Notes: a model not told the origin generated them from the sequence alone. 64,000 nucleotides of DNA from Alphaproteobacteria bacterium (GCA_965232515.1 CBDDPY010000002.1:6240001-6304000), one strand, 5' to 3'. Counted from the stretch's first letter, positions 9,242 through 47,629 are shown. Program-made: numbers and translations.

Positions 9242-11212
9242 TTACCCGTCAGGGTGAAAAAAATCATAAACGCGTCGCGCCACGGTTTTGCTGATTCCAG
9301 CGACACCTTCAAGGTCCACGAGCGCCGCCCGCTCGACCCCCTTGGCCGAGCCGAAATGGTTGAGCAGCGCCCGCTTGCGGCCGGGTCCGATGCCGTCGAT
9401 CTCGTCAAGGGCCGACTTGCCGACCGATTTGCCGCGACGGGCGCGGTGCGTGCCGATGGCGAAGCGGTGCGCTTCGTCGCGAAGGCGTTGCAGGTAGTAG
9501 AGCACCGGACTTCGGGGGTCCAGGCTAAAGGCCGGTTTGTCGGGCAGAAACAGCCGCTCGCGGCCGGCATTGCGGTCGGGGCCCTTGGCGATCGCCGCCA
9601 CGGCGATGCCGGTGATACCGAGATCGGCGAAGACATCCAGGGCCGCGTTCAGCTGGCCCGCGCCCCCGTCGATCAGCACCAGATCGGGTCGTTCGCCGGC
9701 GACGCGGCGATTTGCCGCAATGGCCTTGTCGTCTTCATCGTCGCTGGCGTTCTCGGCCTTCAGCAAACGGGCGAAGCGGCGTTGCAGCACTTCGCGCATC
9801 ATGGCGTAGTCGTCGCCGGGGGTCAGGCTGTCGCTGCGGATATTGAACTTGCGGTAGGCGTTCTTCAGCATGCCTTCGGGGCCGGCCACGATCATGCCGC
9901 CAATGGCGGCGGTGCCCTGAATGTGGCTGTTGTCGTAGACCTCGATGCGTGCGATCGGCCCGTCCAGACCGAAGACCTCGGCGACGCCGTCCAACAACCT
10001 GCGCTGCGCGCTGCTCTCGGCCAGACGCCGGCCCAGCGCCTCCCGGGCATTCACCGCGGCGTGGCGAACGAGTTCGCGCTTGGCGCCGCGCTGCGGCCGC
10101 AGCAGCCGCACCTTGTGGCCCGCCTTGATGGTCAGCGCCTCTTCGATGAGGTCGGCGGCGTCGATCCTTTCGTCGATCAGGATTTCGCGCGGAGGCGGCT
10201 TGTCGTCGTAGAACTGGCCCACGAACGCGGCCACGACCTCGGCAGCGCTCTGCTCGCGGCCGTGGCTTGGGAAATAGGCCCGATTGCCCCAGTTCTGTCC
10301 GGCCCGGAAAAAGAACACCTGAATGCAGGTTTGTCCGGCCTCCTGGTGCGCGGCGATGACGTCGGCTTCGTCGACGCTGGCGACGTTGATGCCCTGGTGG
10401 GACTGGATATGCGCAAGCGCCCGCACGCGGTCCCGATAGTGCGCCGCGGTCTCGAAGTCGAGCGCGTCGCTGGCCGCCGTCATCCGCTGAGACAGGTCGC
10501 GTTGCACCTCCTGGCTGCGGCCCGACAGAAAGTCCGTGGCCTGGTGCACCAGGTCGATATAGTCCGACTGCGAGATCCGGCCGACGCAGGGCGCGGTGCA
10601 GCGCTTGATCTGATACTGCAGGCAGGGCCGGGTGCGGGAATAGAAAATGCTGTCCGAGCAGGAGCGCAGCGGAAACGCCTTTTGCAGCGTGTTCAACGTC
10701 TTGTTGACCGCGCCGGCGGAGGCAAACGGCCCGAAATAGCGGCCCCTGCGGCTGCGCGCGCCCCGGTGCTTCAGCAGTTGCGGCCATTCGTGGTCGCCGG
10801 TCAGCAGTATGAACGGATAGGACTTGTCGTCGCGCAGCAGGATGTTGAAACGCGGCCGCAGGCGCTTGATCAGGTTGGATTCAAGCAGCAGCGCCTCGAC
10901 CTCGGTATGGGTGGTCACCACCTCCATGGCGTGGGTCAGGCTGACCATGCGCAGGATGCGGGTCGACAGACCGGCCGGGTTCACATAGCTCTGCACCCGG
11001 TTCTTGAGGTTTTTCGCCTTGCCGACATACAGGACCTCGCCGTCGGCGCCGATCATACGATAGACGCCGGGGCTGTTTGGGATGGTCTTCAGGGCGTTGC
11101 CGATGGCGGCGCGCCCACGGTCGAGCGCGGCCATGCCGGTTTCGGCCTCGGCCGGCGCGGCGTCGCCCGGCAGATTGGCCGGCGCGTCCTCAGGTTTTCG
11201 GGCTTTCGACAT
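9242..11212 (-). CDS. uvrC: excinuclease ABC subunit C
   Basis: GIY-YIG domain (PGVY...YVGKAKNL), [23 protein letters not shown], HhH. Confidence 0.97.
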
Positions 11213-11311
11213 CCTGATCCATTCTGGCTCGAACCCGGATCACGTCAATCTCGGGGACGTTGCCACACGGATTGCCAGGCACGCGACGCGACCGTTTTTC
11301 AGATTCGGCGG

Positions 11312-11346
11312 CTATCCACCGAAGCTGTGGATAACTTTGTGGCAAA
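11312..11346. promoter_or_regulatory. cluster of three DnaA-box-like 9-mers (DARS-like core)
   Basis: CTATCCACC-5nt-TGTGGATAA (perfect box)-3nt-TGTGGCAAA. Confidence 0.7.
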
Positions 11347-11496
11347 CCAACCCTCCGTTGCGACTCCCCCGCAGGAATCCGGCTTTTTCTAAGCGTTGCC
11401 GAAAAATTAGGCAATCAGGCAAGTCTTTGAAATCATTGAATTAATGTGGTGTTTTATGCGCGCAATCAGGGTGTCGGCGGAAAGGTAAATAGCCGT

Positions 11497-11512
11497 TTAA
11501 CAAAAACTTAAC
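11497..11512 (+). promoter_or_regulatory. CtrA binding site
   Basis: Exact TTAA-N7-TTAAC: TTAAcaaaaacTTAAC. Confidence 0.65.
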
Positions 11513-11716
11513 CGAGAATCCCGCCTGTGCACAAATTACCGATATTGACATGATGATAGCTCGATGACGTCAAATTGCGCCCCTAGACCTGGACCGTTGG
11601 CTGCTCGATGACCGTTTATGGTTAATGGAAGTTAACTTAACAATTAGCCGAATGAATTCTTGGAGGCCAAAACAAAAGCGGTTTCCGATACCGATCAGGT
11701 CTTCCGCGAATCAGCG

Positions 11717-12487
11717 TCACTCGATCGAATTGTCCGAATCGGCCGGTTTCCAAGCCAAATGTTGGCCACCATCGAGGGCGATCATCTGTCCGGTCATCGA
11801 CGGCATATCCAGAATAAAGCGGACCGCGGCGCAGATTTCCGTCGGCGTGGCGCCGCGGCCAAGCGGTGTTGCCCGGCACTGGGCTTCGAACTGGGCATCC
11901 GACTGGCGTGTCGACGGCAAGGTCGGACCGGGACCGATGGCGTTGACGCGAATTCGCGGGGCCAAGCCCATCGCCGTGGTTCGCGTCAGGGCCCAGAGCC
12001 CTGACTTCGCGGCGGTATAGGACAGGAAGTAGGGCGTCAGCCGCCATACGCGCTGATCCAGGATGTTAATTACGTTGCCTTCGACACCGGCCGGCAGTTG
12101 CGCCGAGAAGGCCTGAGTCAGCAGCGCCGGCGCGCGCAGGTTGATGTCGAGATGAGCGTGCCAGGATTCCGGCGTCACGGTCTCGACCGTATCCATCTCG
12201 AACAGCGAGGCGTTGTTGATCAGGCAGGTGAGGGGGCCGATGGCGTCGACCGCGCGCACGATCAGCGACTTGGTGTCGTCGAGACTGGCCAGATCGGCTT
12301 GAATTGCACTGGCCGTACCGCCGGCATCGGTGATTTCCCGGACGACGGCATCGGCATCTTCCGAGGACGACAGGTAGTGCACGCCCACCGTCCAGCCGTG
12401 CGCCGCCAGATCCAGGGCGATCGCGCGGCCGAGCCGTCGGCCCGCGCCCGTTACCAATACGGCCCTTTGGTCTTTCGCCGCCGACAT
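11717..12487 (-). CDS. SDR oxidoreductase (pteridine-reductase-like)
   Basis: TGAGRRLG, NNAS.F, YTAAK, VNAIGPG. Confidence 0.88.
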   Translation of the reverse strand: MSAAKDQRAVLVTGAGRRLGRAIALDLAAHGWTVGVHYLSSSEDADAVVREITDAGGTASAIQADLASLDDTKSLIVRAVDAIGPLTCLINNASLFEMDTVETVTPESWHAHLDINLRAPALLTQAFSAQLPAGVEGNVINILDQRVWRLTPYFLSYTAAKSGLWALTRTTAMGLAPRIRVNAIGPGPTLPSTRQSDAQFEAQCRATPLGRGATPTEICAAVRFILDMPSMTGQMIALDGGQHLAWKPADSDNSIE

Positions 12488-14030: not shown

Positions 14031-16331
14031 TTAGCGGCCCCGGCCGCGTCCGCCGCGACGGCGCCCCCGCGCGCCGTCCAGCATGTCCGGTGTCAATACA
14101 ACGGCGGCATCGGAGTCCGGTTGGGGCGCGTCATCGCGCCGTTTTGCAGTCTTGCGCCGCGATCCGCCGGCCGGCTTCGGCGCCGCGCCCTTGCCGCGCC
14201 GTCGCGGCCGCGCCTTGCCGTCGCCTTCCAGGGTTTCCAGCTCCAGTTGCTCGAGGCGCTGAATCTCGTCGCGCAGCCGCGCCGCTTCCTCGAATTCCAG
14301 CTCGGCCGCCGCGGTCCGCATCTGTTTCTCCAGGTCCTCGATATAGGCCCGGAGGTTGTGGCCGATCAGATGCGGCGTGTCGGCGTCGCCGGTGTCGACG
14401 GTCACGTGATCCGCCTCGTAGACGCTCTGCATTACGTCGGAGATGTTCTTGCGGACCGTTTCCGGCGTGATGCCGTTCTCTTTGTTGAAGGCTTCCTGCT
14501 TGGCGCGCCGGCGATCGGTCTCTTCAAGCGCCCGCGTCAGGCTGTCGGTCATCCGGTCGGCATAGAGCACGACACGGCCGTCGACGTTCCGCGCGGCGCG
14601 GCCGATGGTCTGGACCAGCGAGGTTTCCGAGCGCAGATAGCCTTCCTTATCGGCGTCCAGAATCGCGACCAGCGCGCATTCCGGGATATCGAGGCCCTCG
14701 CGCAGCAGGTTGATGCCGACCAGGATGTCGAACACGCCCAGCCGCAGGTCGCGGATGATCTCGATGCGCTCCAGCGTGTCGACGTCGGAGTGCATGTAAC
14801 GGACCTTGAAACCGGCCTCGTGCAGATAGTCGGTCAGGTCCTCGGCCATGCGTTTGGTCAGAGTCGTCACCAGGGCGCGATAGCCCATGGAGATGATCTC
14901 GCGGCACTCGGCCATCAGGTCGTCGACCTGGCTTTCGACCGGCCGCACCTCGCAGGGCGGGTCGGTCAGGCCGGTCGGCCGGATCACCTGCTCCACGAAC
15001 ACGCCGCCGGTGCGCTCCAGTTCCCACTTGCCGGGCGTCGCCGAGACGAACACGGATTGCGGCCGCATGGTGTCCCATTCGTCGAACTTCAGCGGCCGGT
15101 TGTCGACGCAGGACGGCAGCCGGAAGCCGAACTCGGACAGGGTCCATTTGCGGCGATAGTCGCCCCGGAACATGCCGCCGACCTGCGGCACGGTGATATG
15201 GCTCTCGTCGACGATCAGCAGCGCGTCGTCGGGCAGATATTCGAACAGCGTCGGCGGCGGCTCGCCCGGGTTGCGGCCGGTCAGGTAGCGTGAGTAGTTC
15301 TCGATGCCGGGGCAGGAGCCGGTGGCCTCGATCATCTCCATATCGAGCATGGTGCGCTGCTCGATACGCTCGGCCTCCAGCAGCAGCCCGCGGTCGCGGA
15401 ACCGGTCGAGCGTGATGACGAGTTCTTCCTTGATCGACTTGATCGCCTGCTGAAGGGTCGGCCGTGGCGTCACGTAGTGGCTGTTGGCGTAGACCTTGAC
15501 CTTGTCCAGCGTGTCGGTCTTCTGACCGGTCAGCGGGTCGAACTCGACGATGCCGACCAGTTCGTCACCGAACAGATCGAAGCGCCAGCCGCGGTCCTCG
15601 AGGTGGGCCGGCCACAGCTCGACAGTGTCGCCGCGCACGCGGAAACTGCCGCGACCGAAGCCGACATCGTTACGCTTGTATTGCAGGTAGACGAACTGCC
15701 GCAACAGCTCCTGCCGGTCGATGCGCTGGCCGACCGACAGACTGACAGTCATCTCGCTGTAGGTTTCGACCGAGCCGATACCGTAGATGCAGGAGACCGA
15801 GGCGACGATGACGACGTCGTCGCGCTCCAGCACGGCGCGCGTGGCGGCGTGCCGCATGCGGTCGATCTGCGCGTTGATCGACGATTCCTTCTCGACATAG
15901 GTGTCGGTGCGCGGCACGTAGGCTTCCGGCTGGTAGTAGTCGTAATAGGAAACGAAATACTCGACCGCGTTGTTCGGAAAGAATCCCTTCATCTCGCCGT
16001 AAAGCTGGGCCGCCAAGATTTTGTTCGGCGCCAGGATCAAGGCCGGCCGCTGCACGTTCTGAATAACGTGCGCCATGGTGAAGGTCTTGCCCGAGCCGGT
16101 CACGCCCAGCAGCACCTGATCCTTCTCGCCCTGGTTCATGCCATCGGTCAGCTCGACGATGGCCTGCGGCTGGTCGCCCGACGGCCGATAGTCCGATTGC
16201 AGCTCGAAGCGGCGGCCGCCGTCGCTCTTCTCCGGGCGCTCCGGACGTACCGGTACCCAGGTGACCTTTTCGGCCTGGGCCAGGGCGTATTCGAACTGGC
16301 GCTGGGTCTCTTGCAGCGAGGTGTGAGCCAT
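14031..16331 (-). CDS. uvrB: excinuclease ABC subunit B
   Basis: [36 protein letters not shown]-terminal UVR domain. Confidence 0.97.
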
Positions 16332-34678: not shown

Positions 34679-34732
34679 TCAGGGCGTACGAAACAGCGAG
34701 GCGGCCGCGCGCAGGCGGCCGAAATCGCTCCT

Positions 34733-34898
34733 CCGTTCTCTTCCATCCGGACTATCACCGTCGGCCTCGGAATCGCACCGAGTCTGCTGACCCTTCCAGA
34801 CGGGCAATTGAACTGGCCGCTGAAAGGCGCTCGCGGGCTTGAGCGCTGGGCGCTCACACCGCCGGTGGGGACTTCCACCCCGCCCCGAGAACGTGCCG
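34733..34898 (-). ncRNA. FMN riboswitch
   Basis: Minus strand ttctcggggcggggtggaagtccccaccggcggt...agcccgcgagcg...gtcagcagactcggtg...ccgacggt.atagtccggatggaagagaa, upstream of ribH. Confidence 0.95.
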
Positions 34899-42163: not shown

Positions 42164-42221
42164 GGTTAAGGTCTCCCTAATGGGGGAGCCGGCCATCGCA
42201 GAAGCTTTTCGGTCTTTTGCG

Positions 42222-42302
42222 GCCGCTCCCTGCGCTGGCATGACCCAGATCAGGTTCGATGGGTGTGTTCTCAGCCCCCGTACGAGGGGCACCCCAGCCA
42301 TT
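42222..42302 (-). ncRNA. TPP riboswitch
   Basis: Minus strand ggggtgccc...ggctgagaacacaccc.tcgaacctgatctgggtcatgccagcgcaggga. Confidence 0.95.
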
Positions 42303-42531
42303 GACGATGCAAAAATGACAGCTCGCCCCGGTGCTGTCAAAGCAAGAGAATTGCTGGCCTGGATTGAACGCGGCGGAGGCTGTTTCCCGCGGTTTTCCTG
42401 TCCTGGGGGGTCACGGTTTCTTGAACGGCGGTTGTTTTGATCTTCGGGCAGGTTAGTCTCACTTCAACGACGCGCGGCGTCCAACGGGCGCCGGAAAATG
42501 TCGTGCGTGTCGAGCAGGAGATAGGGCTGCC

Positions 42532-46072: not shown

Positions 46073-47629
46073 ATGACCGGCGGCCCGCCGCCCGCCATCG
46101 AACTCCGTGGGATCAACAAGCGGTTCGGTCCCGTCCACGCCAACAAGGACGTCTCGCTGCTGGTGCCGGCCGGCACCATCCACGGCATCGTGGGCGAGAA
46201 CGGCGCCGGCAAGTCGACGCTGATGAGCATCCTTTACGGCTTCTATCAGGCCGACAGCGGCGACATCGCCATCTTCGGCGAAACCATGAAGATCCACGGC
46301 AGCGAGGACGCCATCGCCGCCGGCATCGGCATGGTGCATCAGCACTTCATGCTGGTCGACGTGTTCACCGTGCTGGAAAACATCCTGCTCGGCGCCGAGG
46401 GCGGCGCGCTCCTGGCCGAGGGCATGGCGGCGGCGCGGCGCGAGATCACGCGGCTGGAGGAGGAATACGGCTTGCAGGTCGATCCCGACGCGCTGGTCGG
46501 CGACCTGCCGGTCGGCCTGCGGCAGCGCGTGGAGATCCTGAAGGCGCTGTTCCGTGGCGCCAAGATCCTGATCCTGGACGAGCCGACCGGTGTGCTGACG
46601 CCGCAGGAGACCGATCAATTGTTCCGCGTGCTCGACACTCTGCGCCAGCAGGGCGTCACCATCGTGCTGATCACCCACAAGCTGCGCGAGATCATGGCCA
46701 TCACCGACAATGTCTCGGTGATGCGTGCGGGCGAGGTGGTGGCCAACCGGCCGACGGCCGAGACCACGCGGGAAGAACTCGCCGAGCTCATGGTCGGGCG
46801 CAAGGTGCTGCTGGAGGTCGGCAAACAGCCGGCGCAGCCGCGCCAGCCCGCACTTGAGGTCGATCATCTGACGGTCATCGACGAAAAGGGACTGCGCTGC
46901 GTGAACGATGTCAGCTTCACCGTTCGCGGCGGCGAGATCGTCGGCATCGCCGGCGTCTCCGGTAACGGCCAGAGCGAGCTGATGGAGGCGCTGGCCGGCA
47001 TCCGCGCCATCGACAGCGGCGAGGTCCGCGTCAACGGCAAGCACGTCACGCCGTCTCAGCCGACGGACGCCAAACTTATGCGGCAGGCGAGCCTGGCGCA
47101 CGTGCCGGAAGACAGGCACCGCATGGGCCTGGTGATGCCGTTCGAAGCCAACGAGTCGGCGATCCTCGGCTACCACGACGATCCGAAGTATTCGGGCATG
47201 GTGTTCATGAACAGCCGCGCCATCGTCGAGGACACGGCCGACAAGATGTCGCGCTTCGACGTCCGGCCGCAGGATCCTTTCCTGAAGACGGCGAATTTCT
47301 CGGGCGGCAATCAGCAGAAGATTGTCCTGGCGCGGGAAATGGAGCGCCATCCGGATATATTGCTTGTCGGTCAGCCCACTCGCGGCGTGGATATCGGCGC
47401 CATCGAATTCATCCACAAGCGCATCGTCGAGATGCGCGACGCCGGCTGCGCCGTCCTGCTGGTCTCGGTCGAACTTGACGAAATCATGTCGTTGAGCGAC
47501 CGCATCCTGGTGATGTTCGAGGGCGGCGTCGTCGGTGAGGTCGCCGCCGAGGACGCGGATTCCCGCACGCTGGGCCTGATGATGGCGAACATCGTGCCCG
47601 ATCAGGACGCGGAGGCCGGCCATGGCTAA
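46073..47629 (+). CDS. nucleoside ABC transporter ATPase (two NBDs)
   Basis: [31 protein letters not shown]. Confidence 0.95.

Follow-up and report, generated by a model that had tools for sequence, protein, structure and literature searches.

Introduction

The described elements that most closely resemble the locus reported here are the DnaA-reactivating sequences DARS1 and DARS2 of E. coli and the DnaA-box cluster datA. DARS1 promotes the release of ADP from DnaA, as stated in passages of PMC6868365. Passages of the same paper and of PMC11724364 describe its workings: boxes I and II are opposed with 5 bp between them, box II of DARS1 has the full consensus, box III is essential, and ADP leaves ADP-DnaA bound head-to-head on boxes I and II in a reaction that needs the DnaA residue Gln208 and to which Leu290 contributes. 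In the E. coli chromosome (NC_000913.3) DARS1 occupies the bioD-uvrB spacer and reads TTATCCACT-attcc-TGTGGATAA-cca-TGTGTATTA. DARS2, near mutH, is activated by IHF and Fis, and a fixed spacing has been reported to be important for it. We find an 8-of-9 IHF match in DARS2 beside a PciI site, and passages of PMC11724364 describe this PciI site as overlapping IBS1-2. DatA is likewise a non-coding cluster of DnaA boxes that works with IHF; passages of PMC11724364 describe its boxes 2, 3, 7 and 4 around one IHF site, a description without a tight head-to-head trio.

Fujimitsu predicted in 2009 that many proteobacterial species have sequences which resemble DARS1 and DARS2 and in which the spacing is conserved (according to passages of PMC10380432 and PMC6868365), and V. 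cholerae is mentioned in this connection in a passage of PMC6090056. In the literature searched, which did not extend to the Fujimitsu 2009 candidate list, we found no described or tested DARS from an alphaproteobacterium. The remark in a preliminary description of the present locus that no alphaproteobacterial example has been characterised therefore stands for that literature, with the qualification that DARS-like proteobacterial candidates were already predicted in 2009.

Results

A DnaA-box trio with the geometry of DARS1

The DNA analysed, hereafter the window, is a stretch of 64,000 nucleotides (G000:C2:6240001-6304000) from an alphaproteobacterial chromosome of 7.33 Mb with 65.5% GC. 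At 11312-11346 the window holds three DnaA boxes, CTATCCACC-gaagc-TGTGGATAA-ctt-TGTGGCAAA, in a 9-5-9-3-9 layout. Box I (11312..11320, plus strand), on the uvrC side, has two mismatches to TTATCCACA and is placed and oriented as box I of DARS1. Across the 5-bp spacer gaagc (11321-11325) lies box II (11326..11334, minus strand), which reads TGTGGATAA on the plus strand. Read from the minus strand it matches TTATCCACA perfectly, and it is inverted relative to box I. The 3-bp spacer ctt (11335-11337) separates it from box III (11338..11346, minus strand; TGTGGCAAA on the plus strand, TTTGCCACA on the minus), which is oriented as box II and has two mismatches. These are the boxes, the 5/3 spacers and the perfect inverted box II that the preliminary description had picked out; it had called the third box degenerate, and box I has as many mismatches.

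A 20-letter pattern of the trio fits DARS1 with no mismatches and the DARS2 core with two, which bears out the likeness to both E. coli cores that had been proposed for alignment. The features of DARS1 that had been given alongside also hold: its position upstream of uvrB, the same orientation and the 5/3 spacing can be read in NC_000913 and agree with passages of PMC6868365, as does the release of ADP from DnaA. Both elements have three boxes in the 9-5-9-3-9 layout with box I inverted and box II perfect, and both are non-coding, away from oriC and adjoining an excision-repair gene. They differ in the gene concerned. DARS1 lies in the spacer upstream of uvrB, with uvrB beyond box III, whereas the trio lies upstream of uvrC, which is on the box I side and reads away from it.

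Single DnaA-box words are not enriched in the window (five against 3.34 expected at no more than one mismatch, 57 against 59.45 at no more than two), so it is the arrangement of the boxes that matters rather than their number. Box II is one of nine perfect DnaA boxes on the 7.33-Mb chromosome. A scan of the 7.39-Mb genome (four contigs, both strands) for the 9-5-9-3-9 layout, allowing up to seven summed mismatches and at most two in box II, returned the trio as its one site, with four mismatches. When 96 spacer pairs (0-11 by 0-7) were tried on the chromosome at no more than five summed mismatches, a match was obtained for 5/3 only.

Elsewhere in the window, at 47386-47417, two opposed DnaA-box-like words, ATATCCACG (minus strand) and TCATCCACA (plus strand), lie 14 bp apart.

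Gene setting of the spacer

The uvrC gene (9242..11212, minus strand) reads away from box I and is a 656-aa ORF whose domains are GIY-YIG, UVR, two of the UvrC RNase H-like type and HhH. There are 99 bases between its ATG and box I, close to the 100 bp originally given. To its left are pgsA, mobB and moeA. The trio stands in a 504-bp intergenic spacer (11213..11716) that runs from the 3' end of a short-chain dehydrogenase (SDR) gene to the start of uvrC, and the 250 bp that follow the trio have a GC fraction of 0.48, compared with 0.655 for the chromosome. The SDR gene (11717..12487, minus strand) is the usual right-hand neighbour in the class, and to its right a Na/Ca exchanger gene (minus strand) is found; uvrB (14031..16331, minus strand) lies 2.7 kb to the right of the trio and reads towards it.

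A weakly predicted sigma-70-like promoter (TTGACG-16-CAGAAT; 11221..11248, minus strand) lies between the trio and uvrC and does not overlap the trio. It is the sole such match, one found against 0.5 expected in shuffled sequence. No terminator was predicted between 11100 and 11800, no known RNA was found in the spacer by Rfam at gathering thresholds, and the small open frames at 11190-11414 (minus strand) and 11625-12020 (plus strand) matched no Pfam family. Elsewhere in the window, Rfam places an FMN riboswitch at 34731-34896 (minus strand, 107.9 bits) and a TPP riboswitch at 42210-42306 (minus strand, 66.3 bits). RNA-library contigs from related strains cover 11299-12089 (X4), 11260-11666 (X6) and 11590-12016 (X7) at a depth of 3-6; as such libraries may include DNA and the contigs show no ends, they say nothing firm about transcripts. 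The raw-read run X21 gave no coverage of the spacer region. The contigs carry G>A at 11393, just before the palindrome described below, and T>C at 11424, among the unspecified central positions of the IHF-type site; within the trio none is listed.

The trio is conserved in a family and in about half of the sampled class

In the one other genome of the same genus (G001) the spacer is 76% identical over 563 bases. There, 33 of the 35 trio bases are kept and the 55 bases to the left of the trio are scrambled. BLAST with the spacer against 41 genomes, G000 included, gave any match in six, mostly at the uvrC start, and recovered the spacer over its full length in one of the 40 relatives, so that pattern searches were needed. 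With up to three mismatches among the 20 specified letters, the trio is present in 33/33 genomes and 8/8 genera of the family, and a backwards control pattern in none. Across the class it is found in 215 of 401 sampled genomes at no more than two mismatches (181/337 among those of good quality), compared with three genomes for the backwards control, and most carriers have a single copy. The remaining 186 genomes have no match at this threshold, and the element is therefore not universal. These class tallies include the unpublished genomes G262 and G063, the former contributing one uvrC-linked locus (L020), and no claim is made on them alone.

Freeing the gaps (2-11 and 0-8, exact letters) gave matches in 56/401 genomes, with 63 rows representing 57 distinct sites. 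By hand count, 51 of the 57 have the first gap of DARS, at least 47 have both DARS gaps, and six have other first gaps. The spacing, whose loss in relatives had been named at the outset as a ground for abandoning the DARS interpretation, is thus kept in the family and the class and preferred when the gaps are free.

The module is usually, and separably, linked to uvrC

Neighbouring genes were sought by tblastn with the UvrC, UvrB, SDR, exchanger and PgsA proteins of the window. Within the family, uvrC reads away from box I at 29 of 30 loci; the thirtieth is a second, weak match in a genome whose other match was not among the loci taken. Thirty loci sampled from the class comprise 19 with divergent uvrC, one with convergent uvrC and ten with no uvrC within 1.5 kb. 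A Pfam search of the longest flanking ORFs found uvrC at 15 of 32 loci, an undercount caused by spurious long ORFs. The suggestion that such an element is again tied to a uvr gene therefore extends from one genome to the class.

A named sequence collection searched with the exact pattern gave at least 117 stretches, and 80 loci were examined among the matches listed. Of these 80, 27 have divergent uvrC on the box I side, with titles naming Stellaceae, Inquilinus, Pelagibius, Paracoccus, Rhizobiaceae, Rickettsiales, Sneathiella, Kordiimonas, Magnetovibrio and unclassified Alpha- or Proteobacteria. Put differently, uvrC is there at 27 of the 28 listed loci marked as alphaproteobacterial by title or UvrC match; the other, titled Hyphomicrobiales, has no uvrC nearby. 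A further 13 of the 80 listed loci are gammaproteobacterial (Citrobacter, Pantoea, Enterobacter, Erwinia, Providencia, Vibrio, Oceanisphaera, Glaciecola, Paraglaciecola and Colwellia) and have uvrB on the plus strand beyond box III, which is the DARS1 layout. The last 40, again among the matches listed, have neither uvrB nor uvrC and include Pseudomonas, Comamonas, other Burkholderiales, Oxalobacter, Thioalkalivibrio and the Hyphomicrobiales locus.

The module is separable from uvrC. We followed five genomes in which the sampled locus lacks the gene: three have uvrC elsewhere, on another contig or 936 kb away, and two have a uvrC-linked copy plus extra copies of the module. Where the linkage exists, the distance from box I to uvrC varies between 44 and 465 bp (measured to the start of the tblastn alignment), with internal spacings that stay fixed. 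The order uvrB, SDR gene, module and uvrC within about 2.5 kb is seen in several other alphaproteobacteria (Stellaceae, Inquilinus and others). The gammaproteobacterial link to uvrB and the alphaproteobacterial link to uvrC may therefore share one old locus.

A palindrome and an IHF-type site follow the trio at fixed distances

The module consists, in order, of the trio, 49 bp, a 19-bp palindrome, 5 bp and an IHF-consensus site. The palindrome (11396..11414; TTGCCGAAAAATTAGGCAA) has an A-tract centre, and its consensus among loci is TTGCCnAAwwwTTnGGCAA. Its inner 15-mer (11398-11412) agrees with five of the six specified positions of the Fis consensus; a 15-mer was used because passages of PMC4245941 speak of 15-mer Fis sites, whereas those of PMC11724364 print 14 letters. 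The candidate IHF site (11420..11432, plus strand; CAAGTCTTTGAAA) matches eight of the nine specified positions of YAAnnnnTTGATW, the consensus given in passages of PMC11724364.

Among 43 uvrC-linked loci, the best palindrome match in the 225 bases searched begins 48-50 bp after box III in 41, and 36 of those 41 score at least 13 of 17. An IHF match of at least 8 of 9 follows 3-7 bp after the palindrome in 34 of the 43, a count that includes some selection since the match taken is the best within a 45-base span. Of the 30 family loci, 29 place the palindrome at +49 or +50 and have the IHF-like site between +72 and +74. The spacer between trio and palindrome is poorly kept in sequence and kept in length. 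Complete modules, with a palindrome at +48 to +50 scoring at least 13, also occur at six loci without uvrC.

Elements that look similar accompany the core in other classes. Among the matches listed, 18 of the 53 printed named loci not linked to uvrC have a 9-of-9 IHF consensus 85-86 bp after box III in the other orientation, and many of them have, by eye, a TGCC...GGCA-type or GGGCATTTTTTGCCC-type element near +50. Relative to the IHF sites of DARS2 and of these beta- and gammaproteobacterial loci, the IHF-like site of the window points the other way. On this comparison, the architecture of the module looks common across classes, with an orientation that differs by lineage. The comparison with DARS2 is close in distance, as the IHF match begins 75 nt after box III there and 74 nt after it in the window, and both have an element fitting the Fis consensus. 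It is less close in order, orientation and strength: in the window the palindrome precedes an inverted IHF site, and box II is perfect where that of DARS2 is weaker. DARS1, for its part, needs no protein activators according to passages of PMC11724364, whereas the module of the window has the fixed palindrome and the IHF-type site.

Motifs of the alphaproteobacterial cell cycle are also present. GACTC (11362-11366) and GAATC (11375-11379) in the 49-bp spacer, and GATTC at 11302-11306, are GANTC sites and possible targets of CcrM methylation. A GANTC site falls within the spacer between boxes I and II in 13 of the 43 loci and at +27 to +29 in ten. We infer that CcrM could act through these sites. 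A CtrA-type motif, TTAA-N7-TTAAC (11497..11512, plus strand), lies 150 bp after box III; the consensus TTAA-N7-TTAA is taken from passages of PMC1914354. The same sequence at the same offset (+150) is found in G000, G001 and G002 only, and on this distribution the motif is a lineage-specific addition. As related genomes are not independent, the GANTC and CtrA-motif counts are descriptive.

Several candidates around the module were rejected. TTAA-N7-TTAA occurs near the module in seven of the 43 loci and at a shared offset in three, so that a class-wide CtrA box was discarded. A conserved promoter at the palindrome was not retained, the column profile showing no conserved -10 by eye on either strand, and a GGAAT...CGTT stretch that resembles a stress sigma-factor promoter is not kept in G001. 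The same-genus genome has almost the same sequence at further blocks of the spacer (11526-11534, 11555-11570 and 11607-11630). These contain a TTAA-N6-TTAAC stretch and two DnaA-box-like words, TTGTGCACA and TTAACCATA on the minus strand.

Proteins that would act on the module

The genome encodes DnaA (dnaA at C2:4.585 Mb) and both IHF subunits (ihfA, 133.1 bits against a cut-off of 111; ihfB, 148 against 119.95; NCBIfam). Thus, as in DARS2, a candidate IHF site, by consensus match, stands at a fixed distance from the boxes in a genome with IHF genes. The DnaA protein is 47% identical to that of E. coli and, in the alignment, keeps K178, V211, F239, K243, D269, R285 and L290. Gln208 of E. coli DnaA aligns with Tyr, with Gln one residue later, which speaks against the head-to-head contact being identical; the authors of PMC6868365 allow for head-to-head dimers with other structures.

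The genome differs from that of E. coli in having no fis gene for a Fis-activated element such as DARS2. Among its 11 HTH_8 matches, in open frames of 192-666 aa, there is no small Fis: nine lie in frames of 457-666 aa, the 192-aa frame holds a 191-aa RegA-type response regulator, and the match in the 300-aa frame is below the cut-off. Consistent with this, Fis is described in passages of PMC4245941 as specific to gammaproteobacteria related to E. coli. For all its 5/6 fit to the Fis consensus, the palindrome would either be read by a dimeric protein other than Fis or act through its A-tract as an intrinsic bend.

Discussion

The geometry of the trio, its uniqueness in the genome, its conservation and the fixed spacings of the module are direct observations, and together they bring the locus close to DARS: the box geometry, a high-affinity box II, a spacing kept in relatives and a non-coding site away from oriC are all those of a DARS core. 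We are confident that, irrespective of the direction in which it acts, the locus is a homologue of the DARS core and a conserved control module that binds DnaA. The more specific reading, that it is a chromosomal DARS-type control module which probably releases ADP from DnaA, has in our judgement about an even chance of being correct. The original proposal of a DARS-type element in an alphaproteobacterium is upheld to that extent by the geometry, the perfect box II and the conservation, and is weakened by the replacement of Gln208 with Tyr.

If the module does release ADP, it might operate as follows. DnaA would bind first to the perfect box II and bring in two more DnaA molecules, one on the inverted box I, 5 bp off and head-to-head, the other on box III, 3 bp off and head-to-tail. 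IHF would bend the DNA some 74 bp away, and the A-tract palindrome, bent by itself or bound by a dimeric factor, would help the module to fold. The resulting complex would loosen ADP from DnaA, as in the DARS of E. coli, whereupon ATP could be rebound and the origin could fire again. The GANTC sites, together with the CtrA-type box in the lineage of the window, may couple this activity to the cell cycle. Two further points speak against ADP recharging. The linkage to uvrC is strong and its orientation fixed, which would also fit a control of uvrC, and passages of the 2019 Caulobacter review (PMC6393856) derive DnaA-ATP from new synthesis, the words DARS, 'nucleotide exchange' and 'reactivat' being absent from the review.

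The explanation that competes best with ADP release is a site of the opposite sign: a DnaA sink, or an inactivating site, at which titration or a datA-like hydrolysis of ATP helped by IHF would lower the initiation potential. A high-affinity box, two helper boxes and an IHF site are also the outline of datA, with its boxes 2, 3, 7 and 4 and one IHF site as given in passages of PMC11724364; Gln208 is not conserved, and sequence alone does not give the sign of an effect. The head-to-head 5-bp and head-to-tail 3-bp geometry is nevertheless that of the DARS core and is selected over other spacings, and three boxes make a poor sink in a 7-Mb genome. We therefore hold such a site to be unlikely, at perhaps half the plausibility of DARS-type ADP release.

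It is less probable still that the trio serves uvrC as an operator under DnaA control, tying excision repair to the cycle of replication, with the palindrome and IHF site as upstream promoter architecture. The position of the module upstream of uvrC with box I proximal (29/30 loci in the family, 19/30 in the class sample and 27/80 named loci among the matches listed) and the weak promoter match between trio and uvrC both suit an operator. Against it, the trio and the predicted promoter do not overlap, complete modules exist away from uvrC, and the same core lies beside unrelated genes in other classes. The variable distance from box I to uvrC (44-465 bp to tblastn alignment starts), set against the fixed internal spacings, weakens this explanation further.

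A chromosomal origin, or a second or cryptic one, would have to be reconciled with the skew of the chromosome. The AT-richer 504-bp spacer with its DnaA boxes and IHF-type, GANTC and CtrA-type motifs does combine the ingredients that passages of PMC6393856 and PMC1914354 give for Caulobacter Cori, and it shares them with other alphaproteobacterial origins. Cumulative GC skew, however, is lowest at 5.81 Mb, with a local minimum near 4.25 Mb, and highest at 1.38 Mb. Between 5.80 and 6.50 Mb all 50-kb bins have positive skew, so that there is no switch at the trio (6.251 Mb). The boundary genes of the Caulobacter and Rickettsia origins, hemE and duf299/COG1806 according to passages of the same two papers, are absent at the trio. 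The genome has its own hemE-duf299 locus 1.86 Mb away. There a 411-bp spacer lies between hemE (C2:4388606-4389628, minus strand) and a duf299 (Kinase-PPPase) gene that runs divergently from it, and this spacer is the better origin candidate. Furthermore, the module stands at varied places on the long contigs of relatives. That the trio might simply be oriC, a concern raised when it was first described, is therefore set aside, and we consider an origin of any kind at this site highly improbable.

A chance cluster of DnaA-box-like words, for which it can be said that boxes I and III singly are as common as chance allows, is refuted by the uniqueness of site and spacing in the genome and by the occurrence of the trio in 33/33 family and 215/401 class genomes against three for the control.

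Returning to the module as a DARS-type element, a wider proposal can be made, tentatively and at somewhat less than an even chance. The DARS core may be part of an ancient module of Alpha-, Beta- and Gammaproteobacteria, in which a Fis-consensus palindrome stands about 50 bp from the core and is followed by an IHF site. The alphaproteobacterial form of this module would be anchored at uvrC, would work without Fis through another factor or intrinsic bending, and would provide the missing step by which DnaA-ADP is recharged to DnaA-ATP in the cell cycle, possibly timed by CcrM methylation and CtrA.

What is new in the present locus is the anchoring at uvrC, the fixed architecture of palindrome and IHF-type site in bacteria without Fis, and the breadth of occurrence, which takes in all genomes of one family and roughly half of those sampled from the class. 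The known controls on DnaA in alphaproteobacteria comprise its inactivation and proteolysis, via HdaA (RIDA) and the proteases Lon and ClpAP, and its new synthesis. A DnaA recharging site is not named in the passages available of the 2019 Caulobacter review (PMC6393856). As the module is conserved, single-copy in most carriers and of a geometry that matches DARS, it presents a defined 120-bp target with which DNA-based nucleotide exchange can be addressed as a general proteobacterial mechanism. It also raises the questions of what reads a Fis-type site in bacteria without Fis, and why such elements adjoin uvr genes in two different classes.

DnaA boxes were also noted at two places on the chromosome outside the window. 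The hemE-duf299 spacer (G000:C2:4389674-4390084; L161 2569-2979), which marks the classical origin locus of alphaproteobacteria, contains an AT-rich stretch and several weak DnaA boxes, and lies near the local GC-skew minimum, 1.4 Mb from the global one at 5.81 Mb. At G000:C2:5965522-5965553 (L199 2023-2054), three DnaA boxes follow one another in tandem and in one orientation, the final one being perfect; they stand between two 2-hydroxyacid dehydrogenase genes, directly ahead of a possible 52-codon ORF and about 150 kb from the global GC-skew minimum.
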